Source of the DNA: Dictyostelium discoideum
Lineage: Eukaryota
Assembly: GCA_000004695.1 (NCBI GenBank)
Contig: CM000150.2
Location: 2,400,001-2,464,000, forward strand
Length of the DNA stretch: 64,000 bases
Direction of reading: 5' to 3'
In this document: positions 4,737-64,000 of the stretch, piece after piece
Layout: each line of letters starts with the position of its first letter
How positions within the stretch are numbered: position 1 is the stretch's first letter
The notes under the pieces: generated by a model
Databases searched by the model: none
What the model saw: the letters and a program-made list of their open reading frames with translations, nothing else
Told to the model about the DNA's origin: nothing
Translations under genes and position numbers: made by a program

Positions 4737-4808
4737 GGCTCCTTAGCATAGTGGTATTGCGCTTCCCTAGTAAGGAAGAGGTCATGAGTTCGATCCTCAT
4801 AGGAGCCT
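4737..4808 (+). tRNA. tRNA-Thr (anticodon AGU)
   Basis: GGCTCCT/AGGAGCC acceptor stem; A box TAGCATAGTGG; anticodon stem CTTCC/GGAAG with loop CTAGTAA; T arm ATGAG-TTCGATC-CTCAT (B box GGTCATGAGTTCGATCC). Folded by eye. Confidence 0.8.
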
Positions 4809-4931: not shown

Positions 4932-7386
4932 AAGCATGGGATATCAAATTAAAACTCCACCTGCATCAAGAAACACCAAGCAAATACCTCACAAGTATCC
5001 TTAAATCCAGAGCCAAAGATAAATCAATATTCCAAATAAAAGATAAAGATAATAAGACCATATCAGATAAAGAGAACATAGCAAAAAGATTTGTTGAATT
5101 CTATCAAGATCAATATGAAGAGAAAGAAGATAACGAAGAAACCCACAAGAAGTTATTAGAAAAATGGGAAGTAGACGTTGATTTAATCAAGAAACTCGAG
5201 ATAGACAGACCGTTAAGAATACATGAAGTGACCAAAGCAATCAAAACTTCAAGTATCCACAAATCTCCAGGTTTAGACGGTATCAATGCACTATTCTACA
5301 AGTACCACATCAACTCAATAGCAAGAATATTGACTATAGCTTTCAACGACCTCCTCACAAATAAGAAAGAAATCCCCACAAAATTCAAAGAAGGAGTAAT
5401 AACAACAATATTCAAAACAGGAGATGAACTAAACATTTCAAATAGAAGACCAATCACCCTTCTCAATACAGATTACAAAATTTTAAGCAAAATTCTCAAC
5501 AGTAGATTATTAGATATCACCAGTAAAATTATCAACAAATTTCAAAACGGCTTTGTTCCAAACAGGTTCATCCAAGACAATATTCAGATCATGAAGGAAG
5601 TAATAGAAATAAGTAACAAAAGAAAGAACAATACACTCATTACCTTTTACGATTTTAACAAAGCATTCGATTCAATCAGCCACAAGAGTATCACAAGAAC
5701 ATTAGAGCATATTGGTATCCCCCCAAAATTCACAGCGATCCTACTAAACCTACTCAAAGATACTAAAAACAAAATAAAGATCAACGACTTTTTAGTCAAT
5801 GGAATAACAATCAGAAGAGGAACAAAACAAGGAGACCCAATATCACCAACAATCTTTGCTCTAGTTTTAGAACCACTTCTAATAGATATCATCAATGATA
5901 ATACAATCAAAGGCTTCACTCTACCAAATTCCAAATCATTAAAACTCACTGCATTTGCTGACGACATAGCAACATTTACAAACTCCACAGAAGAACTAAT
6001 GAAAATTAATACTAAAATCCAAAAGTACTGCTCAGCAACATCATCATCGTTAAACAAAGAGAAAACAGTAATGATAGCAATAGGAGATAAACCACACGAT
6101 CTACCATTCCAAGAGAGTACAGTCCCAGAAAGATATCTTGGCCTCAATTTCACCAAAACAGGTTTAAATTCAAAATACAACACTTTAATCCAAGAAATGA
6201 AAAACAATCTAATCAAATGGAAATCACAAGCAATAACGATGAAGGCAAAGATGACAATTCTCAAAACATACGTTCTATCCAAATTAACATACCATCAATA
6301 CATGGATAATCTAAATGAAGAACAAATTGAGGAAATCAATAACATGACCAGATGGTTCTTATTCTCCTCAGTTAAGAATACATATACAGAAGAGAGAAAA
6401 TACAAAACTATGATGAAAATAGACAGAGCATATGCAGATTGGAAAGAAGGAGGCATAAAATTATGGGATATAGAACTAAGACATATAGCATTCAAAATCT
6501 GGTACATGAACAGGCTACTCCATAACAACTACAACAACAACAACAATACCTTACAAGAATGGTACATGGAGCAATTAAGTAGAAAAAAAGCCCACACTTC
6601 AACCCTCAACGATATGTGCAGACACTGGGGTGTATTCAGAGTCAAATTTTACCAAAACCATCCAAAGATAAATGAACTTCCAGGCTGTATAAGAAACGAC
6701 AATGACGAACCACTAAAACTAAAAGAAATTTACGAACTCATGATCAAAGACAGACACCCAACACCAAGAAGAACAGAATGGCAGAAGTTATGGGCGGTGA
6801 GATACAACACAGCAATACCCAAAGTATTCATAAACATCAACAGCATTTCTCACCAAAAAGGTAGAAACACCCTCTTCAGATTCTTCTCAAGATCACTTCC
6901 AGGTATCAACCACGAAAGAGACACCAGATGCAAGATCTGTGGCCACCTATTCAGAGACCCTTATTCTCACCTCTTCACTCTATGCCAAGATATCCTAGAT
7001 ATTGAAAAAACCATCATATCAACAGTTAACAAATTATCATTCATCAAAATCCACAGATGGTCAATGGAAACCTTAGACATATCAAAATACAACAGAACTG
7101 AGAGAATCTTCCCCAATCTCATAGGAATAATAGCACACCAATTATGGAAGATAATCTGTCACAAATTGTTCAACACTGATGAAAGCAAACCAGAGCCAAA
7201 ATTCGAGCAAAAGGTCATAGAAACAGAATTACTAAATCTCATCGAAACTGAAAAATTCATCACACTAAAGAAAATCAAACACGACGAAGCAATACTAAAA
7301 AACACCAATCAAGATCTTCACAAATACAAATTCAACAAAGCCTGGCAAACCCCAGTAGTTCCGAACCCTCTTCCAATTTAAGTAGT

Positions 7387-11873: not shown

Positions 11874-11960
11874 AGACCCCTCAGGGAGTTGAACCCTGGA
11901 CCAACTGCTAACTTCTTACGTTTTGGAGACAATTACAATAAACCACTATGCTAAGGAGTC
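11874..11960 (-). tRNA. tRNA-Trp (anticodon CCA) with a ~13-nt intron 3' of the anticodon loop
   Basis: RC sequence: GACTCCT TA GCATAGTGGTTTAT TGT A ATTGT CTCCAA [AACGTAAGAAGTT] A GCAGT TGGTC CAGGG TTCAACT CCCTG AGGGGTC T. The acceptor stem pairs (with one G-U). The T arm carries a B box. A TTTTTT terminator lies immediately downstream (11867-11873). Confidence 0.7.
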
Positions 11961-14176: not shown

Positions 14177-14215
14177 GACAACTTAGCAAAGTATTTTACC
14201 CATTTGATATTCGAT

Positions 14216-14296
14216 GACACCTTAGCAAAGTGGTTAATGCGGCGCCCTGCTAAGGCGTTCTCTTCGGAGGCGCAGGTTCGAACCCTGCAGGTGTCG
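14216..14296 (+). tRNA. tRNA-Ser (anticodon GCU), with a long variable arm
   Basis: GACACCT TA GCA AAGTGGTTAA TGC G GCGCC CTGCTAA GGCGT TCTCTTCGGAGGC GCAGG TTCGAAC CCTGC AGGTGTC G. The G73 discriminator is typical of tRNA-Ser. Confidence 0.85.
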
Positions 14297-14321
14297 AATT
14301 TTTAACTTCCAAACCTGAATA

Positions 14322-20226: not shown

Positions 20227-20227
<1 letters not shown>

Positions 20228-23200
20228 TATAATGGAATTGGGTTTGGAGTGTTCGGGTTATGCCATGATGTGTTGAAGTTGATTATTAATTGGTCTCTGT
20301 TATTTAATTTGTATATTGTTTCACTCCTTTCGATCTTCTTTATTAAAATGAATTTCTCTATTTTAATTAAGTTGGTTAGTTCTTTTTCAATTAATGTTGG
20401 ATCAAATGAGGGTGGAGTTTTAGATTCGTCTTGATTGAATAGTTTGTGACAAATTATTCTCCATAGTTGATGTATAATTATGCCGATTAAATTTGGGTAG
20501 ATTCTTTCTTTTTTATTTGTTTTGCTAATATCTAGTGAATTGAGATCCCAATTTCTGATCTTGAAGAATGAGAGATTGTTGAATGTTGAAATTATTATGT
20601 TTTCTATTTCTTTTACTTGCATACAGTCTATAAAAAGGTGAGTGTATGGGTCACGGATTATATTGTTACAGATTTTGCATGGTACGTTACGTTCATAGTT
20701 GATTCCAGGAAGTGACCTTGAGAAAAATCTGAATAGTGTATTTCTACCTTTTTGATGTGATATGTGGTTGATATGTTGGAAGATGGATGGTATGTTGATG
20801 TTATTTATTGAAATTAGATTTTTTTGTCCATCTGTTTTTCTTATTGATTTGTATTTGTGAGTGATTAACATGTTATAGATTTCTTTAAGTTGAAGTGGCT
20901 TTTTGTTTTGACCTTTGATACAATCAGGTAGTGATTTTAGTTTATTGTGTTGTGGTGCAAAGTTGTTTCTAAAATCTTTCCATCTGTCTACCATCTCTCT
21001 TAATCCAATTGATATATATTTGCTGTTGCTGATTTGTTCCATATACCATTCTTGTAGTATGTTGCATGCTTTTATCTTGATAATGTGTAATAATCTATTC
21101 ATGTTCCAAACTTTGAATGCTACTTGTCTGATACCTAAGTCCCACATCTTAATTCCACCTTCTTTCCAATCACCGTATGCTCTATCCATTGTCATTAATG
21201 TTCTATATTTATGTTCTTCTGTGTATGTATTTTTAATTGCGGAGAAGAGGAACCATTTAATGATATTGTTTAGTTCAGTAATGTGTGATTCATTTAGTGA
21301 GTCTAGATATTGATGGTAGGATAATCTCGATAGCGCATATGTTTTGACAATTGTCATCTTTGCTCTTATTGTAGTTGCTTGACTTTTCCAATTGTTTAAG
21401 CTATCTTTGATTGAGTTGATGATTGATGTGATTTTTGAATTGAGGCCCACTTTCGTGAAATTGAGACCCAAGTATCTTTCTGGAGCTTCACTAATCTTAA
21501 ATGGGAGGTTTGGTGGTATATTACCAATGCATATCATAACAGTTTTCTCTTGATTAAGTTTTGAAGATGTACCTAGACAGTAGTTGTTGATTTTGTCCAA
21601 TACTAATTTTAATTCTTCTGCTGAGTTGTTGAAAGTTGACATATCATCTGCGAATGCTGTTAGCTTGATTCTTTTCTGGTCTGATAATTTAAATCCTTTA
21701 ATTTCGATTTCTTTAAGTATATCAATTAGTAGTGCTTCCATTACAAGTGCAAATATTGTTGGTGATAATGGATCTCCTTGTTTTGTGCCTCTGTTAACTG
21801 TAATGTGTCCCACCAGGAAGTCATTTATCTTGATCTTATTCGTTGTTTCTTTTAATAGATTCATTATTAATTCTACTATCGTTTTTGGTATGCCAATGTG
21901 GCTCAATGTTCTTCTGATACTTTTGTGGCTAATTGAGTCGAAAGCTTTGTTGAAATCGAAGAATGTGATTAACGTAGTACTATTTCTTGATTTGTTTGCT
22001 CTTTCGATTACCTCCTTCATTATTTGAATATTATCTTGGATGTAACGATTTGGAACAAACCCATTTTGAAATTTGTTTATTATTTTCTTTGTAACTGCAA
22101 GTAAACGGTTGTTGATGATCTTACTTAATAGTTTGTAGTCCGTATTGAGTAGAGTAATTGGTCTTCTATTAGCTATTTGTAGTTCGTCTCCTTTCTTGAA
22201 TAGTGTTGTGATAAATCCTTCTTTGAAGTTGGGATTGATTTCTTTTTGATTAGTTAATGTATCATTAAATACTTTTGCTAAGATTGTTGAAAGTGATGCA
22301 GAGTGGTTTCTATATAATGCAGCATTGATTCCATCTAGTCCTGGAGATTTGTGTGGATTAGAATTTTTAATTGCATTATTGACTTCTTTTGGTGTGATTG
22401 CACTATCTAATGATAGTCTGGAAATGTATTGTTTGTCCACTATCCATTTATCCAATAGTTCCTTGTGTTTACTTTCATTATCTGGTTTTTCATCGTATTG
22501 TTCTTGATAGAATTCTAAGAAGCATTTGGCTATTTCAACTTTTTCTGATACAATTGTTCCATCTTTATTTTTAATTTGGAATATGGATCTGTCCTTTTTC
22601 CTTTTCTTTAGTTTACTTGTTAGATATCTACTTGGAGTTTCTTGGTTTAAGTGAAGTTTCAATTTGGTTTCCCATTGTTTATTTGCTTCTTCTTCTTTCA
22701 ATAACTCTTCCATTTCGTCTTCTAGTTGCTTTCTTTGACCAGGGTATAAATCTTCTCTTTCAATTAATCTATGTAACCTACTCTTCTTTTTGTTTTTTTC
22801 CTTTTTTATCAAGTTCTGTTGCTTTTTGAGATGGTGCCTGATTGTATAATTCTTAAAGTGGATCCAGTCATCTAGTGTGTTGATGTATTGTTTGTTGTTT
22901 TCTATGATTTGCGAGATTTCTTCATGAATTGTTGGATCAGCCAATGTTTCTTTGCATAATGTCCACGGGAGTTTTTCAATTTTGATGTTGTTGATGTTGA
23001 TATCGTTTGCGCTATTGTTATTCATTTTTAAATCTATTGAAATAGGTGTGTGGTCAGATTTGTTGTAAATATCTTCATGCACCCTTAGCGGGTTTGAACC
23101 CACCATTGTTGGTTTACAATAAATTCTGTCCAATCTGCTATTAGATCTTGAAAAAGTTGCGATATTGTTGTTTGCACCTATATCTTTCAGGTTGCTTTCT

Positions 23201-23676
23201 TCAATTATACTTCTGATACCAATACCATAGTGTGAATTGTTGTTGTGGTCTGCATTAAAGTCACCTGCAATGATGTCATGTTTGATTTTTTGATCTTTAA
23301 TGAGATTCTTTGCTGCTATAATGAATGCATTTCTTCTAGGTATTGATGCTGGGGCATAAATTAAAAGGATGTTGATGTTGATATACGAATTGAATTTAAC
23401 TGATAATATTCTACCTTCTGTATCTTTGAAATTTACTGTTAGATAGCCAGTGCTTAAATTTCTATTCTCTATTGATACACCAGTGCCTTTACCGTTTCCA
23501 TGATCTATCCTTTCATAGTTGAACATTGATTTATAATGATTGAATGTTGAACCGTTTGTTTCTGTAAGTAATGTGATTTGGGGACCTATTCTCTTGATCG
23601 TTTCTTCAGCTTTTTTATTTGAGAGAGGGCTTGAACTACCTCTGCAATTCCATAATAAAATTTTTAATTTTTCCAT
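20227..23676 (-). CDS. ORF2 (1149 aa) of the TRE3-type element: AP-endonuclease, reverse transcriptase, C-terminal CCHC zinc finger
   Basis: MEKLKILLWNCRGS...(APE: GDFNADHNN, SDHTPIS), HKSPGLDGINAALY, NRRPITLLNTDYKLLSK, FFDFNKAFDSISH, TKQGDPLSP, FADD, ...PCKICNNIIRDPYTHLFIDC. Single uninterrupted ORF. Confidence 0.8.
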
Positions 23677-24753: not shown

Positions 24754-24792
24754 TATTTTATTACGTGATAAAAAAAAGATAAAAAGATAGAT

Positions 24793-24873
24793 CGACACCT
24801 GCAGGGTTCGAACCTGCGCCTCCGAAGAGAACGCCTTAGCAGGGCGCCGCATTAACCACTTTGCTAAGGTGTC
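24793..24873 (-). tRNA. tRNA-Ser (anticodon GCU), second copy
   Basis: Exact reverse complement of the 14216-14296 gene. The 5' leader cccatttggttttcgat is conserved. Confidence 0.85.
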
Positions 24874-25240
24874 ATCGAAAACCAAATGGGTAATACACTT
24901 CATTTAACCAAATGTGTAAAGGAGATCGAAAAAAAACAAACAACAACAACAATCTCTTTTTTTGATTATTTCATTTTTCATATAAAAAAGACTTAAAAAA
25001 CAAATAAATAAATAAATAAACTATCTTAAAAAGCCATCTTTTTACTTTATTGTAATTTATTATTTGTTTCGTTTTGAGAATTTTGCGTAGCAAAATTTTC
25101 AAAAAAAAGCAAAAAATAATCAGATCGAAAAAAAACAAACAACAACAACAATCTCTTTTTTTGATTATTTCATTTTTCATATAAAAAAGACTTAAAAAAC
25201 AAATAAATAAATAAATAAACTATCTTAAAAAGCCATCTTT

Positions 25241-25771: not shown

Positions 25772-25799
25772 ATTTTTGGTCTTAGAGTGGTTATAAATT

Positions 25800-27457
25800 G
25801 TCCTTTTAAACTACCACTCAAAATGGTCCTCACAATAATGAACTTACTCAATGAATCAGAAACATCAGTGTACATCAATAACTCATTATCTAAAAGCTTT
25901 ACATCAAAAAGAGGAACCAAACAAGGTGATCCTATCTCTCCCACTATCTTCGCATTAGTGGTTGAATGCATGGCAACTACTATAATAAATGACCGCTGCA
26001 TCAATGGTGTAACCAAAGAAACCATTAAAATACTACAGTTCGCCGATGATACAGCAACAATAGCATACAACTTTATGGACCATTTCCTCATGAATGAATG
26101 GATCAAGAAGTTTTGCCAAGCAACCAGCGCAAAAATAAACCAAACCAAATGCTCGTGTATCACTTTCAAATGGAACACCAGAACGCTATACACCGTCATA
26201 AAATCAAACGAAAGGTACCTCGGCTTTGACTTCAACAATAAGGGTATCAAATCCAAAATCAATACAATCTCAGACAACATCAGAGCTAAACTAGTAACAT
26301 GGAACTCAACTTCATCAACCTATATGGGCAGACTCATAATGGCAAAAACATATGCACTATCTCAGTTAACGTTCCACACTTACATCAACACCACACCACA
26401 ACACAATAGTATTGAAAATAACATCGTAAAATTCGTTTTCAACACAAAATCTAAAAACTCTCTTTCACTACAAAGAAGACAAAACAACTATATCAATGGT
26501 GGCCTAAACTTATGGAACCTGAAGACAAGAGAACTAGCACAGAAAGCATGGTTATTCGAAAGATACCTCCACCAAAGAGTAAGTAACACTCCTAGTTCAT
26601 ATATAAAACTGTGGGAAGAGGAACTCAAAAACAACAACAACAACAAAACAACAACAAAACAAAATCAACTACAACTACACTGGCAATGCAAGCAAGCATG
26701 GACCCAATTAAAAACTCCACAAAATAAACAAACACATTACGAACACCTCCCAAAATTAAAAAAAATATACGAAGATATGATGACAACTCAATCTCCTGAA
26801 CACAACAAATTCATACCAACTCCTGGCCAAAAAGAAATAATGACCAAAATTAATAGCAAACACCTTCCATTTAAAGAAATCAAAAAAATAATAAACATGA
26901 AAGGTAGAGATCTATTATGGAGATACACACTGAAAGCACTACCAAAAATATACAACATGCCATGCCAACAGTGTGGGGAAGATGAGACCTCAGAACATAT
27001 ATTCTTCAACTGCAAAGCCCACATCAAAAACACACAAGAAATCTTCAACTACACCCTAACTAAGTGTGGACACACCACTCACACCTGGAATGTGAAGATT
27101 TTAAACCATCTACAAATTGCACTAGTAGCCAATTTAATAGCTATTATATTCGATAAAATCTGGCACAAAAGAAATAAACTCATTCACGATGAAAAAGAAA
27201 TAATAATTCACAGACAACAAGTCATACGTGAACTAATTAAAACACAAAGAGCTGCATGGGACAGGACACAAGCGGTTATAAACAAAACATTAAGAATCAA
27301 ATCAAAGCAACGGCCAGAAGAACAAAATAAATTAGACTCACTAATCTCGCTAAAGCTATTACAATTTAGCAGACAATGGAACTCACCTCTTCACGCAATA
27401 GAACTTCCTAAACATCTCAAAAAATACAATAATTCACTCAGTACTTTCTATAAATAA
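25800..27457 (+). CDS. TRE5-A-type ORF2, 3' part (RT C-terminal region and C-terminal domain with a Cys/His cluster)
   Basis: SKRGTKQGDPISPTIFALVVE, QFADDTATIA, ...NMPCQQCGEDETSEHIFFNCKAH. Same subfamily as 1-2819 and 13871-14176. Confidence 0.7.
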
Positions 27458-31764: not shown

Positions 31765-33282
<1,518 letters not shown>

Positions 33283-38500: not shown

Positions 38501-39236
38501 TCATTTTTTAATTGAAAGAAAAGATTTAAAAATAATTTCAATTGCATGAGCACCAGGATCCATAATATGTGAAGTTCTTTCACCCAAATAAGATGAACGA
38601 CCTTTTTTTGCAATCATTTCAATTGTACTTTCAGAACCTAATTGAGCCTCTTTTGAAGCAAGTTTTAAAGTATTTAATAAATCAAACGATGATGAAGAGT
38701 TTTCATTATCTTTACAACATTGATTAATTTTATTAATTGCTGGTATTAATGAATCTAACATTGTACAATCACCAATATCAGCTTTACCTAATTCTTTAAT
38801 TGCATTAACTGCATCAATTAATGATAAACCCCAATCATTGGTTGAAATTTGGTTTTTTCCATTTACTGTTGATCTTTCATATAAACTATTTGAAAGTCTA
38901 AGGAAAAAGATTGAATAAAAAAGTCCACTTGATCCACCAATTAATTCTTGAATAATTAATGATATTTTTCTAAATGTATAACATGGTTTATCAAATGGAA
39001 TTGTATCAATGGATTTTTTAATTGATTTCGATAAATTCTCTAATGTTGTACCTAAATCACCATCACCAACTTGTTTATCTAAATCTGTTAATTTATTTGA
39101 ATTCTCAATTAATGAATTACATCCCAATAATACAATTTCTTTTAATATTTCTCCATTTTCTTTTGAAATTGTTATTGATTTTAAATTATCATCTTAAAAA
39201 AAAAAAAAAAATTATTAATAATTATTATTTGTTTGG

Positions 39237-39286
<50 letters not shown>

Positions 39287-39749
39287 AAAAAAAGACTTTA
39301 CATTTAATTTCATGTGAATCATTTTCATCTAAAGTTAAAATTGAATCTTCTTTATTTTTATATGGTTTTAAAACACTATTTGGCCAACCCATTGCATTTG
39401 TTTTAAGATCAATTCTAAATTATTTTAAATATAAAATATTAATAGTCAGGTATATTATATATTTATAAAAAGAGTATAGAATATATTTAGATGTATTATA
39501 TATATACAAACAAATTAATTATTTGATTATTTTTAATTAATAATAAAGATATACTAATTCCAGCCATTTCTAATGATGTCATTAAAGTTCCAGTAATTAA
39601 TCTTTCAACAGTAAAACCTTTTTCATGTAAATAATTTAAACAATCATTTGTAGCAATTGCCATTTCCATATTAGTGGTACTACCTAAATTATTAATTAAT
39701 ACAATTAATGATTTGTCTTCACCATCACTACCACAAGAAATGCCACAAC

Positions 39750-39819
<70 letters not shown>

Positions 39820-40458
39820 TGAATAGGGTAAAATTTTAAGTAAATTATCAATTAATGATTTAATAATTTGTTTTGAAGGTTTTAATTCAACTTTTTCAAT
39901 ACCAAATTCACCATGAATACCTAAACCAATTTCCATTTCTTTTTCATTTAATGTGAATGATGGTGAACCAACTGATGGAATGATACAAGATGATAGACCA
40001 ACACCCATAGTTACTAAATTTAATGATTTGGATGGTGATATATATTTATTATAAAATTTTAAAATTTCATCAATTGATTTACCTTGTTCAGCTAAACCTC
40101 CTAAAATTTTATGAACTAAAACTGTACCTGCAATACCTCTTCTATTTGTAATTGATTTATATTTATCTCTAATATCTTGGATATTATCATTATTATCATT
40201 TGAAAATTCATTTAATTTCATAAGAATTGAAGAAATATCGTCATCAACGGTTATAATTTCAACTCTAATATCTGGTAGTTGACTTTTACACATTTCCCTT
40301 GCAATACTAAATGAACCATTATCACCCATATAGTTTTTTACAATTAATATACAACCCATTTTACCTGCAACTGATTTAATAGCCATAAAAATTTGTTTTG
40401 CACTTGGTGATGCAAATACATCACCACAAACTGCACCTATTTTTATTTTTGTTTGTTT

Positions 40459-40495
<37 letters not shown>

Positions 40496-40838
40496 GATAA
40501 GTGAAATGAATACATTACATAAAATAAATTATAAAAATGTATACAAACCTGTTAACATAGCATTTCCAATATATCCAATATGTGCTGGTTCATGTCCACT
40601 TCCACCTCCCGAAATAAGTGTTACTCTATCTTTTCTGTATTATTTATTTTTAAAGATTAATGAATGAATGAAAAAAAAATAAAAAAAAAAAAAAAAATTA
40701 TATTTACATTTGTGAATAGTCAGATCTTACTACTACATTAAAATTTCCTTTAAGTTTTAATAAATCTCTTGATGATTGAGTAAAACCATCAATCATCTCA
40801 GAGACTACATTTTGTGGATTGTTAATAATTTTTTTCAT
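38501..40838 (-). CDS. Dihydroxyacetone kinase / triokinase (Dak1 + Dak2 domains). Five exons: complement(join(38501..39192,39302..39414,39512..40436,40549..40634,40708..40838)).
   Basis: Exon 1 [19 protein letters not shown]...; exon 2 [28 protein letters not shown] (the DhaK GGGSGHEP motif); exon 3 [12 protein letters not shown]...[21 protein letters not shown]; exon 4 linker; exon 5 ...[17 protein letters not shown]... (the DhaL DxxxGDGD motif). Every donor is GT and every acceptor is AG, and the phases are consistent. The coordinates were derived by hand. Confidence 0.7.
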
Positions 40839-44311: not shown

Positions 44312-45271
44312 TTAAACTCTAATAGCAGAAGATGATTGAACTACATTTGGTTTTGTTGTTTCAATTTCAAAGCTTTCAGAATCATCAATAGATTTATCGT
44401 TTTCATCTTTTTTAGAGATTTGATCATTTGATGATAAGCCTAATAGATTAGAAACGTAAGCTTTTGGTGATTGCCAAAAACTTGTTGATCTATTTAATGA
44501 TTGTTGTTGTTGTTGTTGATTTGCTGAAACTATATTTACAGTTGTAGATGGCTGTGGTGAATTTGAAGATTCAAATAAAGTTGAAGCTTCTCTTGGTAAT
44601 GGATACTTTGAAATTGGAATAAAAGTATTTGGAGCATCGGCAGTTGATAAAATACCAGCATCAACAGTTGAAGAAGATTGTGAAAGTTTATCGACTAAAG
44701 AACCTTTAGCGGTGGGTGTAGTGGTGGTTGAATTTGGTTCACTGGCAGAGGAGTATTGTTGTTGTTGTTGTCTAATTGTATTGAATTGGGGATAGATAAT
44801 TTGTGTGGGTGGTGATAGACCACTATTTATCTGTTGGAGTGTGAAAGTTTCAATCACCTTCTCCATTTGTTTAATCTTTTCATCACGTTCAAAAATACCA
44901 CGTTCCATCACTCTCATTTGGTCCATTAACGCCTTCATTTTCAATTCATTGGTTTGATTACTTTCTGATGTACCCATTTGCTGAAAATAAGTTGTATCTT
45001 GATTTGGGTCCCATTGTAATTGTAATAATAGATCTTCTCTCTCTGTTAATAATTTACGATTAAATTCAATCTCTTTTAATTTATCTTTATAACGTTCTTC
45101 TAATTTATTATGATCCTCTTGTAATTCAAAATATTCTTCTCTTATATCTCTAATAGTATCAATTAATTCTTCTTTACTAAGATGATAAATTCCTAAAAAT
45201 TCATCTTCTTCATCAATAATAATTTCTTCTTCATCTTTTTTATTATTATTATTATTATTATCTTTTGTCAT
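44312..45271 (-). CDS. Coiled-coil protein (319 aa), function unknown
   Basis: Single ORF. Heptad-like K/E-rich region (..EEYFELQEDHNKLEERYKDKLKEIEFNRKLLTEREDLLLQ..) and a Q/S/T-rich tail. Confidence 0.5.
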   Translation of the reverse strand: MTKDNNNNNNKKDEEEIIIDEEDEFLGIYHLSKEELIDTIRDIREEYFELQEDHNKLEERYKDKLKEIEFNRKLLTEREDLLLQLQWDPNQDTTYFQQMGTSESNQTNELKMKALMDQMRVMERGIFERDEKIKQMEKVIETFTLQQINSGLSPPTQIIYPQFNTIRQQQQQYSSASEPNSTTTTPTAKGSLVDKLSQSSSTVDAGILSTADAPNTFIPISKYPLPREASTLFESSNSPQPSTTVNIVSANQQQQQQSLNRSTSFWQSPKAYVSNLLGLSSNDQISKKDENDKSIDDSESFEIETTKPNVVQSSSAIRV

Positions 45272-45905: not shown

Positions 45906-46880
45906 TTATTGATTAGGATTTGAAGGTTCAGTTTCATTTGTAATTGGATTAGTTGTAGTAGGATTTTGTTGATTTGATTGATCAGGGAAAGAAGTTGTTG
46001 ATAAAGTTGATGAGGTTATTGAATCAGTGATTGAATTTGTATTATTTGTATTATTTGAATCGGTGGTTGTTGTTGTTTCACCAGAACCATCAATAATTGG
46101 ATTTAAATTATCTTTATTTTCATTGTTACTATCAATTACTTCCAAGATGAAATTATGATTTGTATAGATACAGATATCAGCTGCAATTTTCATTGATCTT
46201 CTTGCGATTTCTTCAGGATCTAAATCTGGTACGGTTAGGAGGGCACGAGCAGCAGATAATGCAAAATCACCACCACTACCAATTGCGAGGATACCATCGT
46301 TTGGTTCTAAAACGTCACCATTACCATCGATATTTAATGTGATATCTTTATCGGCTACGATTAATGATGCTTCCAATCTTCTATAGTATTTATCAGTTCT
46401 CCATTGTTGTGCTAATTCAACACAACTCTTTAAGAGTAAACCACGATGTTCTGTTAATTTTCTTTCTAATAATTCAAAGAGTGTAAATGCATCTGCAACT
46501 GATCCTGCAAAACCTGCAATGATTTTACCATCTGATAACTTTCTAATCTTTTTTGCATTTGGTTTGACAATCGAGTGACCAAGTGTAACTTGACCATCAC
46601 CAATAATAACAACTTTACCATTTCTTCTAACTGATAAAATTGTAGTTGCTTTCATTCTATATGGATCAGAATGCATTGATCCTGCACCTGCACCAAGACC
46701 CCAATATTGTGGTGGTGGAAGTGGTGCTCCACCTGTATAATATCCACTTGTACCCGAACTTAATTTACTACTTTCAACTACAACATTACTTATATTACTA
46801 TTTCCTAAATTACCAATTATTGGACTTTTTTGTAATGATGGTATTAAATATTTACTTGATAATTTTGAAAAATTAAACAT
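45906..46880 (-). CDS. hslV: HslV (ClpQ) ATP-dependent protease proteolytic subunit, mitochondrial-type, with an N-terminal presequence and a C-terminal T/N-rich extension
   Basis: ...[10 protein letters not shown]|[62 protein letters not shown]...[18 protein letters not shown]...[13 protein letters not shown]. Very close to bacterial HslV (TTIVSVRRNG..VIAGDGQ.TLG...). The catalytic Thr follows a ~75-aa presequence. Confidence 0.85.
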
Positions 46881-47180: not shown

Positions 47181-48351
47181 TTAATTTTGTATCTTTGAAA
47201 AATCAATAACAATGCCACTTAGATGGTCAACTAAATTAATTTTAAAATTTGGACACATATTTGGTTGAATATTATAATTATTCCAATCAAAATATAAGAC
47301 ATTTAATCCAGTTGGTTCATTATTTGAATCTAATTCAATTGTTGAGTTTGGAATTAATGGTAATTGATTATCTGATTTAGGTGATAAACAATAATAATAA
47401 CAACCACCACGAGATGAATTTGAACCAATTCCATCAACTAATAAAGCAGTTTTAACACCAAAATTTATCCAATCAAATACTTTTCTTTTACAATAATTTA
47501 ATGAATCACCTTTTGATCTACATTCTAAAATAAAATGATTTGGTATTAACTTTTTAAATTTGATTTTATCATTATCATTTTCATTATAATTATCAGTATC
47601 ATTTTCATTTTCATTATCAGTTTCATAAAAAACTATATCTGGTTTCCTAAAATTTTTATTTTTTTTAGTTTTTAATTTTTATAATAATTAATTATTATTT
47701 TAATTTTTATATTATTTATAAATATAATAAATACCTAATACCAGAAGGAAGTAAATAAAATAAATTTGAATTTAAAATGAATTTACCTTTTAAATTATCT
47801 ATTGAAATTAATGAATTATTTAATTGATTATATAAATCAGAAATTTGAATATTAATATTAAATGAAATTAATCTAATATAAAGAATTGTTTTATTTAATG
47901 TTGTAATATGAAGATCTTTATTATTTGAGATTATTTTTTTAATTGATATTTGATTTGAACTAAAAAATGGTAACAAATTTGAGAAATATATAAAAGTTGA
48001 TGATGGTACTCCAATTAATGTATCATTAACAAATGAATTTCTATTTTCATTGGTTTCATTAAATTTTTTAAATTGTTTATTTGTTATTTTAAATGGTAAA
48101 TTAATTGAATATAAAAGTTTATTAAATTCATCTTCTTTTTCATTTTGTAAAATAATTTTATCATAATCAAAATCATTACTATTATTAATTATTTCATATC
48201 CTTTACTATATTGATTTGAAAAAACTAAAATTAAATTAATTAATAATAATTTTTTTTTTTTTTCATACAAAACAAATAACAAAAGAAATACTTTACAAAA
48301 TTTAATTTTTTTAATTATTCTTTTAAATTTAAATATTATCTTTTTACACAT
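47181..48351 (-). CDS. Uma2-family (DUF820) PD-(D/E)xK nuclease-like protein. Two exons: complement(join(47181..47646,47735..48351)).
   Basis: Exon 2 encodes ..RKPDIVFYETDN...KKLIPNHFILECRSKGDSLNYCKRKVFDWINFGVKTALLVDGIG.., matching the Uma2 pattern (PD..v.E..S......K...Y...GV.EYW.vD). Intron 47647-47734 (donor ag|gtattt, acceptor ttttag). Exon 1 is N-rich with no recognisable domain. Confidence 0.5.
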
Positions 48352-56627: not shown

Positions 56628-57286
56628 TTAAATTGGAGTTGGATTATTTATATTGGAATTATTTGAAACATTAGAATTATTATTATTATTATTTAGATTA
56701 TTATTATTATTATTGTTTGGATTAGAAGTATTTCCAGTATTATTAGAATTATTTGAAGGTGAAACTGAAGATTGTTGAACAGCTTTAATAATTTCGGATT
56801 GCAAATTACGTAAAGATTGTAAATCATCTCTTTTTTCTGGAAAATAAGATAAAAATTCATTTAAACTTTCAACTGAAGCACTTAGAATATGAAGATGTGG
56901 AGCCAAAGCGGCCGATGAAGATTTACTTAATTGTCTCTTCATTTTAAGTATTACTTTGAAAACACCATGTTTGAAGAGATTGAAATAGAATAATGTTGCC
57001 AATTGTGATGGTAATTGACCAACTTGTTTCTTTAAACCATATAATACCAATTCATTTGTTATATGATGAAGATCAAATAAAAGTTTTTGGTAAGATTCAT
57101 GGAATATTGATTGTTGATGATGTTGATCATTTGATGGTGATGGCGATTCATTATCGTTATCATTCTCTAAAATATCAAATATATTTTCCAATTCTTTTAA
57201 TTCCTCATTTGTAAGTTTAGTTGATCCAAATATTCCACTTGTAGTTGAAATATTTGTATTTATTATTGAACTATTTCCACTACTAC

Positions 57287-57329
<43 letters not shown>

Positions 57330-60300
57330 GTTGTTATTATTGTTATTGCTATTACTAATTACAGAACTATTTGAAATTATATTACCACTTGCAACTGTAG
57401 AATTATTTCCACCAATATTAGATGACACTGATGAAGATGATGATGATGAAGAAGATGATGATGATGATATAGTATTTTGAATTGGTGCATTCCAATTTGA
57501 ATCAGAATTTGTAATTAAAGATAATAAAGAAGAAGATTTCATTAATAAAGAATTTTGTGAACTATTTAAACCACCTGAACTATTTAATTGTTGTTGTTGT
57601 TGTTGTAATTGATGTTGAAGTTGTTGTTGCTGTTGTTGTTGTTGTTGTTGTTGTAATTGTTGTTGTAATTGTTGTTGTAATTGTTGTTGTTGTTGTTGTA
57701 ATTGTTGTTGTTGATTATTAGTTTGAATACAATAGAGATAAAGACTATACCAAAACTTTTTAAATTTACGAATGAATTTAGTGATCAATTGCTCCAATGA
57801 TCTATAATGATAACCACCTTTCAAACCTGAACTTGCAGAGAATGAAGTCAATTGACCAGTGGTAATACGTAATGAGATTACATATTTCTCAGTTAAACTA
57901 TGTTTATTATAAACGATGATATGCTCTTCCAAGTATTTCTCTTTCAACAATAGATTAGTATGTTCTAGGATCGCTGGAATATTTGGACGAACTGTAATAC
58001 AACTAGATGTCATTGGATCAATTGAAATTACACCATTACTTGGTGGATCAATAATAAAGAAGATTGTATTTGCTTTAACAACAATTGATAATGGGTCACT
58101 AAAACTATTATAAATTGAAATCTCTCTAATAATTTGTGAACTACCACTTGAATCATCAAATTCAAAATCAACTTTTTTACTACCACTAGTACCTGTACTC
58201 ATTGATGATTTACTAGATGTTGTTGTCATTGTTGTATTTGTTGATGTTGTTGTTGTTGTTGTTGTGGTTGCTGCTATATTTGGTTCATTTGATTTTCTAA
58301 TCTCATCTTTATTTAAAATAAAATTACTATCATTTAGTTGTTGTTGTTGTTGTTTTTCTTTTTCTTTTTCTTTTTCTTTATCTTTTTCTTTTTCTTTATC
58401 TTTTTCATCTTTCATAATGATTTTACCTTTAAAAACTATATTTTGATCAGATAATTTCATTTGTGGATATCTACAAGTTGCTGATAGTGTAATGATTTGT
58501 TGATAATCACGAATTAATCTACAATTTAAAAAGATTTTAATATCTTTTTGAGTGAAAGATGTATTGTTTGTAGGATTTGATGAAGATGGAACATGGAAAT
58601 AAACGAAAACTTTAACTTGACTATTTGGTTCTACATAGAGTGTATTGAATTGACGTAAATAGGAACGAGATAATGAGAAACAAACTTCGGTTGGATCATT
58701 TGGTGATAAAGAAGTACTTAGCATGAAATCCAATGGCATTGAAGAAGAATTTGAAACAATGAATGATCTATCGGTATAGGTGATATTATAGAAAACGTCA
58801 CCCAAATTGATTATTGGTGCCGAGTTTTGTTTACCTTCAACCAAAACACTGAAATGTGAATTTTGTTTAACAACGACATCAAATGTGATTTGAATGGTTT
58901 TGATATCAGCTGGATTATTACGATTTTCAATGATTAGATAAGTGGAATACATATCGATACGTTTTGTTGAAAAGTTCACTGTGATAATATGACGACCATG
59001 TGGTTCGATTTTACCAGAGTTTCTACTTAAATTTAACCAAGTATCATCATTATCTTTCATAGAGTAAATTGAATATTCAACTGGTTTAACTGATAAATTC
59101 TCTAATGTTAATTCCCATGGTATTGATCCAGATGAAAACTCTTGTTGACTTAGATGAATTTCATAACAATTCTTTAATCTTTGAATTGGTGTACAACCCC
59201 TTAATGATAATTTTGGTAATTTATTTAAATTTATAATTGATCCTGTTGAAATTGGATCATTAACTATAATTGGTGTAATAATTTGATTATTAATATTATT
59301 ATTATTTGATGTTGTAGTTATTGTTGATGATGATGATGTTGAAGTAGTTGCAATTGGTTGAGTGTTATTTATAATTGAACCATCTTTATTATTAGATAAT
59401 AATGAAATATCATTAATATTTGAACTATTTGGAATTGATTGTGAACTAATTGTAATTGGTGTTGATACTGATGATGTTGATGGTGTATTATTATTTGATA
59501 ATAATTGTTGTTGTTGTTGTTGTTGTTGTAATTGTTGTTGTTGTTGTTGTTGTTTTAATTCACTTAAATTTGAAGATGGTGAGGTTGGATTTGGAATTGG
59601 TTTATAATTACCAACTAAATTAATATTAACTTTTTGAGTTTCATTATTTAAAGTATCTAAAGCAGTTACAATTACAACAAAAGATGAAGAAGGTGGTATA
59701 TCATCAATACCATTTAAATCGATAACAACATTAACATTCATTAGTTCATTTGGTGGTATTTCACCCTCTTCTGGGGATAATTTTACACAACTTGTTGGTA
59801 ATAACCATTGATTTTGATTGAAAACCGATTCAACTTTAAATGTTAATGAATAATGACTACTGGTATTCTTAATTTTGAAATAATCATCCAATGTTGTCAA
59901 GAGAGATTGTTCTTCACCCTCTTTATTTGTGATACGAGAGATAACATTGAAATTCAAACGATTAATTGATAGAGAGAAATAATGGCCAGGTAAGATTGTA
60001 CCTTTCAATGGAATCACCTCGATTGGATAAATTGAAGTATTCAAAATGATCTTACCAAATGTTGTTAATTCTTCAAATGATCTTTCACGTAGTTTTGAAT
60101 CTGGACGTGGTCTAGCACGAATTCTAACTTCAATCACTTCTTGTGGACGTAATGAAAATGATGGTATTGGTGTATTTGATGTTTTGTGAACTAATTCCAC
60201 CATAATTAACTCTGAAAATTGTGGTAATAAATCAACTTCAGTTTGAATTTTCAATGATTTATTAGATGTATTTTCAATTGTAAACCATTCATCAGATTGA

Positions 60301-63300
60301 GATGATGCACCAACTAATGGAGGATGATAAATACATGGTAATATAATATCACCATTATTAGTTGAATTATTATTATTATTATTATTATTACTATTATTAA
60401 TGCTACCACTAACAATAATACTACTACTATTTCCACTATCACCACTACCACTACCAACAATATTATTAGCTAATGTTGGTGAAGCTGTTAATGATGGTGT
60501 ATTTACAGTAGAGGTTGCTGTTGTTGTTGTTGTTGTTGTTGTTGTTGCTGGAGTACTTGTTAAACGACCAAAATTTAAAACTCTAAAAGTATGATATAAT
60601 TGGAAATTAACAGACATTGTATTAAATTCATTCATAACATTTTCAAATTGAATTGGATAAGTTATTGGGCCAGGTTGAGTTTGTTCAATCTTTGTTGGAT
60701 CAATACCAATAATAATTTGTTTTGATTCTGATGATGGAATTTCAAATTCAATAACAATTGATTCTTCTTCTTCCTCTTCTTTTTCTTTTTGTTGTTGTTG
60801 TTGTTGTGGTTCTTTTCTATCATTTAAAATTTCATTAACACCATCATCTTTTTCTTTAATTAATTTATTACTACTATTATTATTAATTGATTTTTTAATT
60901 CTTGGTAAAATTATTTTATTTGAAGATGAAGATGGTGAAGTTAAATTTGAATGATTTGGATGATTTAATAAAACTCTAATTGATTTTGAAGGAAGTGATC
61001 TAACACGAATGACTAATGGAATCTCTGAAAGATTTCTAATTTCAATAGTAGTGAAAATTTCTTTCCAAGAATTTTCATAACCAACTCTACCAATATCAAT
61101 TGTATTATTATTAATAATAACACTATTTTGATGAGTATTATTATTTTGATCATTTACAAATAAAATTTCACCCATCATTGACATACAATAACTACCAGTA
61201 ATTGAAACTAATTTTGAAATATGAGTTTTACCTTCACCAGGTGCAATTGGATAATGAGTTGAATCTGATCTTTCGAAAACAAGTGTACCTTGAAATTTGA
61301 CTTTACGACCTTTACATAACATTAACTTTTGTTTTGGTGTTATGATTGTATCAGGTTGTGGTGGTTGTGGATAAGCTATGACTTTTTGTTCACTTGAAAG
61401 TACGAATGGTTTTGCACATAATCTCATTGACTTTCTACGATCACCCATTGATTGAGATTTAATCATTTGTAACTCTTCAATTGTTGGTTCATGAAGGAAG
61501 AGATAAATGTTTATATTTGATTTTGGATAGATACGAATATCATACTTGAGATAATTTCTCATTGTGAATTGTTTTTGTTGATATAATTGATCCGATGCAC
61601 TTAATGAACCTTGATCGATCAAGTATTGTTGTGGTGTTATAACGAATGATAATAACTTTCTATCACCGGCAGCAATCTTTTCATTCCAAGATATTGGACT
61701 AACATAGATATCGTCGAATCTTAACATATCACCGCCACCATTCATATTGATTGGTAAATTTGTAGTTAATGAAGAATCGTCAACCAATAAACGTATATTG
61801 ATTTCAAGTTTTTGACCTGAACAACTTAGATTGGTAATGATAATTCTCTCTTCATATAAACCATAAATTGAAGCTACCAAAGAGAAATGAATCTTTTCCT
61901 TTGAGAGTGGATGACTAACTTCACTACCCTCCAATGAACCTTCCAATTTCGAAGATAATTTCAAATTCTTACTATGAGTGATTTGATAATTCAATGGTAA
62001 CAAAGTTGAAACATTTGAGATTGTAAATGATGATGAAATGGTTTCACCCAATTGTCTAGTTGATCCTAAATCAATCATATTCTTTGCAACTCTTAAAATA
62101 CTCTTACCAACAATCGATGTGAATTTTATAGTATTCTCATAGAGTAAATTATGATCTTGATCATGTACTTTGATTCTAATACCACCAATTAATTCTCTAC
62201 AATGACCATCTACATAATTTTCACTGGTCATACTTGGTCTTAAACAAATTTGAACCACTGATTTTTCATAACCACTCAAGAATAAATTATCGGCTGGCTT
62301 TGATAATCTATCATCAACAAATACAAATACCTGTTGAGTTAAATTTGATTTCATAGAGATATACAATGATTTACCCGATAAATTATCCAATCTAAATGGT
62401 AACACCTTTGAGAATTTCTGTGATTTATCATAATAACAATTTCCAAAATCTAAAATTTGTGTTGATGGTAAATCTGGGAATACTAAATATTGTGGTGGTC
62501 TTGGACTTAATGCAACCAATAATAAACTTTCAAAATGATATTGTGTTGATGTAACTACAATCGTATGAGTTTGTTTACCTGGTATTTGTGGTTGACAAAT
62601 TACTTCAATTAATCTTTTACCATATGGTTCAATTATACCTGATTTCTCTTTTAATATTAAAACATTTTTACTTGAATTATTATTTGAATTTGTTGTTGTT
62701 GTTGATGTTGATGATGTTGTTGTTGATGTTGTTGATGTTGATGATGATGTTGATGATGGTTTTGGTGGTTGTTTTACATTAATATCAAATGGAACTTTAT
62801 GACCAGTATGGTTTGTAATTGTAAATCTAAATGTAATATCTTCATAAATTCTAACTTCACCTAAATCAATTTTACCTGGTGAAATTGTAAGAGCTGTTGA
62901 ATTTGTAGTTGTTGAGGAAGATGAAGAAGAAGAAGTTGCTTTTGAAGCTGTTGGTTTAAAAATTGAAGTTGTACTTGATAAAATATTATTTGAGAAACTT
63001 GGTGAAGATGGTGGAGGTGGTGATGAAGGTATAACTCTTGAACTACCACTACCAAATGGAATTGGTGATGATGATGTAAAATGTTGTGGTTTAAATGGTG
63101 AGAATGAAGGTAATTGATTATCAGGTACAGTATTTGCACTATTGATTGCATTTGATGAAAGATAATTTTGACGATAAGTTTCTTCATCGAAACAAACTGT
63201 TGAAATATAATTAATCTTTTTAGTGACATCAATATTCTTTGATTCATAAATTAATATTGAACCATTACCATCCTCTTTACCATACCATTGTTTTTTAGTA

Positions 63301-64000
63301 CCTGGTTTTGGTACTGGTGAGAAATAAACCAAAACATTTTGAATACCACCACCTTCAACTTCAAATGTAATTGAATTATCACCAATTTTACAAAATTGTT
63401 TCTTTTCTAATTGTTGTTGAACTGGTGGCGTTGTTGTTGCTGTTGTTGTTGTTGTTATAGCTTGTTGTTGTTGTTGCTGTTGTTGTTGTTGTTGTTGTTG
63501 TTGCTCAACAATTAAAGCTTTTTCAATATTTGATTCATTATTTTCATTATCATCAATTGGTGTTGGTGAAGTTGCTCTAGAGATTGGGTTTGGTGTGATT
63601 GAACCTGAATTTCTTAATTTTTCGATTTGCATATTAATTTTTAAAGCTTTTTCATGTTGACCTTTTCTACGACAAATTTTTAATTTTCTTTCTAAAAGAT
63701 CAATTTCCATTTCAGTTTCTTTAGAGATACTAAAAGCAGATTTCTCTTCAAGTTTAAAGTATAATTTGTTTAAACAAGATTCAAAAGAGGAAGGATTATC
63801 ATCAATGATTTTAAAGATACGACGTTGATTACTAGTGTTTGTGAGTGTGATACGTTTTGTGATTGATTTACCTTTGATCATGACTACACCGAAATCTATA
63901 TCCAAAGTATTGAGAAAGAAATGTCTTGGTTTCTTTACGTTTGCTTTAATATGAACTATTTGATTATTACATTGATCATAAACATTCTCAATGATTAATT
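56628..64000 (-). CDS. Giant low-complexity protein (at least 2457 aa) with multiple ASH/MSP-like (PapD-like Ig-fold) repeats, poly-Q/N/T/S tracts and a KEKD repeat. The 5' end lies beyond the window.
   Basis: Repeated ~100-aa modules each begin with [ILV][DN][FL]G.V and contain [FI].[IV].N.S: FGVVMIKGKSITKRITLTNTS, IDLGEVRIYEDITFRFTITNHT, LDFGNCYYDKSQKFSK, IDLGSTRQLGETISSSFTISNVS, IDIGRVGYENSWKEIFTTIEIRNLS, INLGDVFYNITYTDRSFIVSNSS. The frame stays open to base 64000. The track start at 63905 is a TTG. Confidence 0.6.

Follow-up and report, generated by a model that had tools for sequence, protein, structure and literature searches.

The DNA analysed here, a 64-kb stretch of the Dictyostelium discoideum genome referred to as the window, carries on its minus strand, at positions 45906..46880, a complete single-exon coding sequence for a 324-aa HslV protein. 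The reading frame runs uninterrupted and without intron from the ATG at 46880 down to the TAA at 45906 (stop codon 45908-45906); the start codon lies in an A-rich context, the nearest in-frame stop is located 30 codons upstream, and no in-frame ATG, GTG or TTG that could serve as an alternative start occurs between the two. An earlier interpretation made from the DNA letters (the sequence-only reading) had placed the gene at exactly these coordinates, to which we add the strand that it did not give. The protein is letter-for-letter identical to the product of DDB_G0269282 of D. discoideum AX4 (XP_645845.1, EAL71991.1; UniProt Q55ED6) and, therefore, the single-exon model is the existing public annotation; UniRef100_Q55ED6 bears the name "ATP-dependent protease subunit HslV" and the gene resides on a 4.92-Mb D. 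discoideum contig. A full-text literature search for 'DDB_G0269282' found no paper.

Genomic surroundings of the hslV gene

The average G+C content of the window is ~25%. Its intergenic DNA is extremely rich in A+T, and the spacers on either side of hslV contain 12% and 17% G+C. The GC3 of the hslV coding sequence is 0.126 (0.174 for the core alone), compared with 0.08-0.15 in the neighbouring genes, and its neighbours in the window are eukaryotic genes, namely those for RAI1/Dxo, Dak1/Dak2, a myotubularin-related phosphatase, eEF1A, NKAP and a Rab-like GTPase. The ORFs on either side of hslV, at 44312-45271 (minus strand, 319 aa) and 47716-48351 (minus strand, 211 aa), gave no Pfam match, the former containing poly-Q/N and coiled-coil-like sequence.

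Several other features of the window were recorded. Four tRNA genes (Thr-AGT, Leu-CAA and two Ser-GCT; 4737-4808 and 14215-14297 on the plus strand, 11874-11960 and 24792-24874 on the minus strand) are interleaved with ORFs coding for reverse-transcriptase domains (1089-2942, 5228-7381 and 25787-27457 on the plus strand, 20227-23676 on the minus strand), an AP-endonuclease domain being present in one of these ORFs as well; ARAGORN predicted the Leu-CAA tRNA, which Rfam did not recover at its gathering threshold. We take this whole region (1089-27457) to resemble the known Dictyostelium non-LTR retrotransposons that target tRNA genes. The eEF1A ORF (31765-32949, minus strand) forms a G+C spike at 32-33 kb (0.41 vs about 0.2 around it) and has a GC3 of 0.34 against the 0.08-0.15 of the neighbouring genes, a codon bias presumably linked to high expression; its Pfam match does not start until profile position 44, so that an upstream exon is probable. 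Dak2 and Dak1 domains were found in consecutive ORFs of the same strand (38501-39127 and 39496-40515, both minus), most likely a single dihydroxyacetone kinase gene split by an intron. Finally, a 2425-aa ORF at 56628-63905 (minus strand) showed weak matches to the Ig-like domains of CFAP65 and CFAP74 (30 and 21 bits) and to the ODAD1 coiled coil. CFAP65 and CFAP74 are ciliary proteins and Dictyostelium has no cilia, which makes these matches odd; the ORF probably encodes a generic Ig-like or coiled-coil protein.

Family assignment, catalytic core and HslU pocket

NCBIfam profiles, PDB alignments, AlphaFold and Foldseek delimit an HslV catalytic core with the Ntn-hydrolase fold at residues 79-250 (46131..46646, minus strand), and over these residues the DDB_G0269282 product is a true HslV (peptidase T1B), not a 20S proteasome beta subunit. 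The two NCBIfam HslV equivalog models matched above their cut-offs, NF003964 with 265.9 bits (cut-off 137; profile positions 4-178 of 179) and TIGR03692 with 255.7 bits (cut-off 157.75; positions 1-170 of 171). A sequence search of the PDB returned HslV proteins as its best 14 matches (E = 3e-62 to about 1e-49), headed by those of H. influenzae and E. coli (E = 3e-62 to 1e-60) and with T. brucei HslV among them; the pairing of residues 79-249 with residues 1-172 of H. influenzae HslV makes Thr79 the equivalent of Thr1. Used as a tblastn probe against the window, residues 1-169 of E. coli HslV matched 46646-46140 without gaps (59.8% identity, E = 9e-65, far beyond chance), which bears out the statement of the sequence-only reading that the mature part is nearly collinear with the E. 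coli protein. Its wider claim, that of an HslV encoded in a eukaryotic nuclear genome, is upheld by the equivalog scores, the PDB matches, the exact identity with DDB_G0269282 and the eukaryotic neighbours.

The idea that the protein could instead be a 20S beta subunit or some other proteasome-like homologue (BPH, Anbu) draws on the Pfam search, which gave the generic PF00227 'Proteasome subunit' (88 bits) and nothing beyond it. Against this, the archaeal and bacterial 20S beta models TIGR03634 and TIGR03690 scored far under their cut-offs (36.5 bits for a cut-off of 224 and 21.7 bits for 191.9, respectively), and the 20S beta subunits in the PDB sequence search appeared at E values of at least 5e-4 only, vs 1e-49 to 1e-62 for HslV. 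The same order was obtained with the predicted structure, for which the best 23 Foldseek matches in the PDB were all HslV/ClpQ (TM (target) 0.85-0.90, 52-60% identity, E = 1e-17 to 1e-21; T. brucei 4ho7 included), followed by BPH and 20S beta at E = 1e-10 to 1e-9 and 16-26% identity. Profile, PDB sequence and Foldseek comparisons thus refute a 20S beta, BPH or Anbu identity, whose probability we regard as practically nil. Best matches to 20S beta subunits, which the sequence-only reading had named as the observation that would overturn it, did not occur in either the PDB or the profile searches.

In the AlphaFold2 monomer pLDDT is mostly >90 over residues 79-250 and strands and helices follow the expected order. 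Asp17, Gly45 and Ser124 are residues with catalytic roles in HslV. Such roles are also documented for Thr1, Thr2 and Lys33 (PMC2277460). The catalytic residue map places T79 (46644-46646), T80, D95, K106, K111 (46548-46550), G123 and S202 at the positions of Thr1, Thr2, Asp17, Lys28, Lys33, Gly45 and Ser124, respectively, and all seven are invariant in an alignment of 61 sequences. The same holds for F132, F135 and A157, the counterparts of Phe54, Phe57 and Ala79, which belong to the pocket of E. coli HslV where the C-tail of HslU docks (PMC6429459), with two substitutions elsewhere in the pocket: E192 for Gln114, as in alphaproteobacteria, and Q158 for Lys80. The docking pocket for the HslU C-tail therefore appears, by its residues, to be kept in the Dictyostelium protein. 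In addition, an AlphaFold 3 12-mer of Q55ED6 has been fitted to a star-shaped cryo-EM density, which its authors left unassigned (PMC12828403).

The HslU partner is not encoded in the window, as the sequence-only reading had remarked: a tblastn search with E. coli HslU (a probe validated as full-length HslU by TIGR00390, 791.7 bits) gave E values of at least 0.7 only, no AAA+-type Walker A motif is present in any frame of the 64 kb, and none of the 20 window ORFs scanned (nearly all ORFs of at least 150 aa) has an AAA+ Pfam domain. On the other hand, the HslU-contact residues are not conserved in BPH, an ATPase-independent descendant of HslV (PMC5777263), and HslVU is listed for Amoebozoa and other eukaryotic groups in the summary of Ruiz-González & Marín (2006) provided by PMC2277460. 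Because F132/F135/A157 are invariant, unlike their equivalents in BPH, and because HslVU is summarised as occurring in Amoebozoa, our comparison suggests that a partner has been retained in D. discoideum.

The N-terminal extension and the C-terminal tail

TTILSV begins at residue 79 and the N-terminal extension is thus 78 aa long; the sequence-only reading had rightly assigned the catalytic Thr to this motif, and its presequence of ~75 aa has to be lengthened accordingly. Comparison of orthologues indicates that the extension is composite and not a plain presequence. Its residues 1-35 (46776..46880) make up, by composition, a putative mitochondrial targeting segment with 3 Lys (charge +3), no Asp or Glu and 20% Ser. 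A basic and acid-free stretch of 30 residues opens 7 of the 9 dictyostelid orthologues, the two exceptions resembling one over-extended and one truncated gene model, and the LIPSL motif of this segment (46833-46847) recurs as LIPSL or IIPSL in the HslV N-termini of several dictyostelids. When residues 1-35 were shuffled with their composition preserved, 50-60% of the shuffles (fractions 0.51 and 0.60) reached an Eisenberg hydrophobic moment as high as that of the real segment, and AlphaFold predicted no helix in the N-terminus (pLDDT <= 50), the extension being predicted as disordered.

In the N-terminal 148 residues of the Tieghemostelium lacteum HslV model (P0014, 400 aa), 5 Asp/Glu occur among the first 30, unlike in all other orthologues, and an internal 'MAFVSRFLKTSTS' resembles a true presequence start; on these two grounds the public model probably begins too far upstream.

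The middle of the extension (residues 36-68; 46677..46775) is rich in Gly, Tyr and Pro in the alignment of orthologues and holds two motifs conserved among dictyostelids, GYYTGG (46728-46745) and PQYW (P-x-Q-Y-W; 46701-46712). GYYTGG is identical in Cavenderia (0/2000 shuffles match) and SGYY is common to another dictyostelid (fraction 0.03).

The last ten residues before the core (69-78; 46647..46676) form a propeptide-like segment that aligns with a propeptide of 10-14 residues present in every alphaproteobacterial-type HslV of our set, exemplified by MLEHKDPYQFYA|TT and MTEHHDPIGWHG|TT; propeptides are common among HslV proteins (PMC8665760). All 45 listed non-dictyostelid sequences with an N-extension conform to ...H-x-(D/N)-P-x-x-(W/L/F)-(H/Y)-(G/A)|TT. 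Residue -1 in the 61 N-extended sequences is Gly in 42, Ala in 18 and Ser in 1, Ala being found in nearly all dictyostelids and in some Rickettsiales-like bacteria, whereas positions -2 to -4, aromatic or hydrophobic in the bacterial propeptide, are basic in dictyostelids (RMK, RKK, KKK, QKK). This homology argues that residues 69-78 descend from the propeptide of an alphaproteobacterial HslV; exposure of Thr79 requires that they be cut off.

Beyond the core, residues 251-324 (45909..46130) constitute the T/N-rich C-terminal extension announced by the sequence-only reading, an acidic T/N/S-rich tail of 74 aa with 23% Thr, 22% Asn, 15% Ser and a net charge of -8, for which AlphaFold2 gives a pLDDT of about 50 and hence predicts disorder. 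Every dictyostelid orthologue has such a tail (31-91 residues), bacterial relatives having mostly 0-7 extra residues and a maximum of 27. Within it, the dictyostelid comparison delimits a conserved motif of 13 residues (45993-46031). TSSTLSTT is identical in Polysphondylium violaceum (0/2000 shuffles) and ITSSTLS is found in Tieghemostelium (fraction 0.003); since these strings are common to other dictyostelid genera, the tail is not pure filler. At the aligned tail position Heterostelium, Acytostelium and one EukProt sequence have LDLSQ(A/Q)(P/A)P. A resemblance of this LDLSQ to the HslU C-terminus (...DLSRFIL) was considered and dismissed as too weak, the match spanning three residues.

Origin, maturation and relation to known systems

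HslV orthologues were found in every dictyostelid genus sampled, and those bearing both extensions come from Dictyostelium (six species/isolates), Polysphondylium, Heterostelium, Acytostelium, Tieghemostelium and Cavenderia. Among the best 120 matches all named bacteria are alphaproteobacterial (Sphingomonadales, Acidocella, Rickettsiales MAGs) save one 'Proteobacteria' MAG, and the other named eukaryote in the set is an oomycete (Aphanomyces). The core is 64-70% identical to alphaproteobacterial-type relatives and 59-61% to the HslV of E. coli and H. influenzae. In a neighbour-joining tree (200 bootstraps) dictyostelid HslVs form a clade with 100% bootstrap, and together with all alphaproteobacterial-type sequences they are split from the E. 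coli/H. influenzae pair, again with 100%; the grouping of dictyostelids with Aphanomyces is weak (42.5%). The gene is native to dictyostelids and of alphaproteobacterial type, and hslV has been employed as a nuclear marker gene of mitochondrial derivation (PMC4198247).

Taken together, we favour, with a probability of roughly 0.85, that the gene product is the precursor form of a mitochondrial HslV (ClpQ), the protease component of bacterial-type HslVU, and that the gene, a legacy of the alphaproteobacterium that gave rise to mitochondria, was relocated to the nucleus. The mitochondrial location would follow from the charge and composition of the N-terminus, from mitochondrial ancestry and by analogy with experimental precedents. 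In T. brucei, HslV, HslU1 and HslU2 are mitochondrial, and deletion of their N-terminal signals abolishes this location (PMC2277460); in the HslV of L. major a mitochondrial signal extends up to the 'TTI' motif (PMC6429459); P. falciparum pro-ClpQ (~22 kDa) and mature ClpQ (~18 kDa) belong to a mitochondrial system (PMC3223699); and the mitochondrial proteome of diplonemids includes HslV along with three HslU variants (PMC12699882). Several points tell against a simple mitochondrial precursor: an N-terminal amphipathicity no higher than in shuffled sequence, the lack of a predicted helix in this segment, the detection of the protein in a lysate described by its authors as cytoplasmic, the length of the extension (78 aa, where T. 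brucei has 19) and the conservation of its middle part, unusual in a pure targeting peptide. As to expression, a 2025 study combining shotgun EM and mass spectrometry identified Q55ED6 by 2 unique peptides in high-molecular-weight fractions of a D. discoideum lysate (PMC12828403) and, with the reading frame intact, the gene is thus intact and expressed in D. discoideum. Among the Q55ED6 peptides retrievable from that work, none defines the mature N-terminus, and six predicted tryptic peptides, YLIPSLQK of the presequence included, were not found (PMC12828403).

Two alternatives were weighed against an ancient mitochondrial inheritance and an HslU-dependent mitochondrial function. A bacterial gene gained recently by horizontal transfer, or contamination of the assembly, might be suspected from the high identity of the core to bacterial HslV and from the mere 42.5% bootstrap of the sister relation to Aphanomyces, but the GC3 of the gene is indistinguishable from that of its nuclear neighbours, it sits among eukaryotic genes on a D. 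discoideum contig of 4.9 Mb, the same N- and C-extensions recur in every dictyostelid genus sampled within a fully supported clade, and eukaryotic hslV is treated in the literature as mitochondrion-derived (PMC2277460, PMC4198247). The host-like GC3, the orthologues across genera, the tree and the marker-gene use therefore provide a strong argument against such an origin, which we judge very improbable. Somewhat less remote, though still unlikely, is that HslV acts without HslU or outside mitochondria, its N-extension and tail serving another role, for instance if translation from Met69, which aligns with the start of the bacterial propeptide, yielded a pro-HslV devoid of targeting signal. The lack of an HslU gene in the 64-kb window, the unremarkable N-terminal amphipathicity and the detection of the protein in a lysate termed cytoplasmic (PMC12828403) would fit this proposal. 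However, that lysate also contained mitochondrial matrix enzymes, in complexes such as Odo2 (PMC12828403); Met69 is not conserved beyond the genus Dictyostelium proper, while the reading frame upstream of it is conserved across genera; and HslU independence is at odds with the invariant docking residues, which the ATPase-independent BPH has not conserved (PMC5777263), and with the occurrence of both HslV and HslU in Amoebozoa, as summarised in PMC2277460.

Under the favoured mitochondrial reading, a 34.8-kDa precursor (masses are calculated) would be imported into the matrix by virtue of its basic, acid-free N-terminus and lose the whole 78-residue extension, in one step or two, leaving Thr79 as the free N-terminal nucleophile. 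The mature subunits of ~26.7 kDa with their tail (18.8 kDa for the core alone) would then assemble into a dodecamer of two hexameric rings, to be switched on when the C-tails of the HslU AAA+ hexamer insert in the pockets between HslV subunits; HslU, presumably encoded elsewhere in the genome, would unfold substrates and feed them to HslV at the expense of ATP. The last cut, Ala78|Thr79, might be the work of the mitochondrial processing peptidase; alternatively, HslV might cleave itself autocatalytically, as proteasome beta subunits do. As a general rule, sites with a basic residue at -2 or -3 are favoured by the processing peptidase. A cut by this enzyme is conceivable because dictyostelid HslVs have basic instead of aromatic residues at -2 to -4, a pattern compatible with the evolution of a processing-peptidase site at the old propeptide boundary.

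Propeptides of proteasome beta subunits help assembly or regulate activation. It is tempting to speculate, as a tentative proposal that we hold to be possible and by no means probable, on a three-part precursor made of the targeting segment, the Gly/Tyr/Pro module (GYYTGG...PxQYW) and the basic-ended propeptide, which would mature in two steps and whose module, possibly with TSSTLSTT of the tail, would aid assembly or the control of activation within mitochondria. If true, this architecture would amount to an additional, lineage-specific control over a protease of bacterial origin.

The Dictyostelium protein is itself already known, being named HslV in UniProt, and eukaryotic HslVU has a literature of its own. 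The view of the sequence-only reading that HslVU is rare among eukaryotes was overstated, as HslV and HslU of eukaryotes, Amoebozoa included, have been published since 2002-2006 (Couvreur et al. 2002, Gille et al. 2003, Ruiz-González & Marín 2006, as cited within PMC2277460 and PMC6429459). What our analysis adds is modest: a probably composite N-extension with a retained alphaproteobacterial propeptide, and candidate short motifs in both extensions. HslVU survives from the endosymbiont that became the mitochondrion. Ruiz-González and Marín are said to have concluded in 2006 that it is missing in animals and fungi. As humans do not have it, it is pursued as a drug target in trypanosomatids and Plasmodium (PMC6429459, PMC3223699). 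In T. brucei HslVU controls mitochondrial DNA replication, and the authors of that work asked what HslVU does outside kinetoplastids (PMC2277460). Dictyostelium, a tractable and non-parasitic model with an HslV, could serve to address the mitochondrial role.

Compared with its bacterial counterparts, the Dictyostelium core aligns without gaps to E. coli HslV, the H. influenzae protein having one extra residue (PDB 1E94, 1G3I), and is alike in Thr1/Thr2/Asp17/Lys33/Gly45/Ser124, in predicted fold and in the retention of Phe54 and Phe57, while the 10 residues preceding Thr1 match the propeptide of alphaproteobacterial HslV. It departs from bacterial HslV in the ~68 additional N-terminal residues placed ahead of the propeptide-like segment, in the acidic low-complexity tail of 74 aa that follows the core, in basic rather than aromatic residues at -2 to -4 and in the Gln that replaces Lys80; moreover, the gene is nuclear and monocistronic and does not adjoin hslU. 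With respect to 20S beta subunits, the protein has in common the Ntn-hydrolase fold, the N-terminal Thr freed by propeptide removal and membership of PF00227, and differs in its low structural-match identity (16-26%) and in falling far under the cut-offs of the curated 20S models; HslV rings are hexameric and homo-oligomeric, without alpha rings, and those of the 20S proteasome heptameric (PMC8665760).

The closest known systems are those of other eukaryotes. Like the HslV of T. brucei (PDB 4HNZ/4HO7) and Leishmania and PfClpQ of Plasmodium, the Dictyostelium protein is nuclear-encoded with an N-extension that ends directly before TT, and by analogy it is expected to operate by the same mechanism, as a Thr1 dodecamer activated by HslU. 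The T. brucei protein matches it in sequence at E = 2e-49 and in structure with 52% identity and a TM of 0.88. Unlike T. brucei HslV, whose extension is of 19 aa and whose pocket has the smaller Ile54 and Met57, that of Dictyostelium has an extension of 78 aa with conserved internal motifs and an E. coli-like pocket with Phe54 and Phe57. Its long tail sets it apart from all the non-dictyostelid HslVs compared, which extend at most 27 residues past the core.
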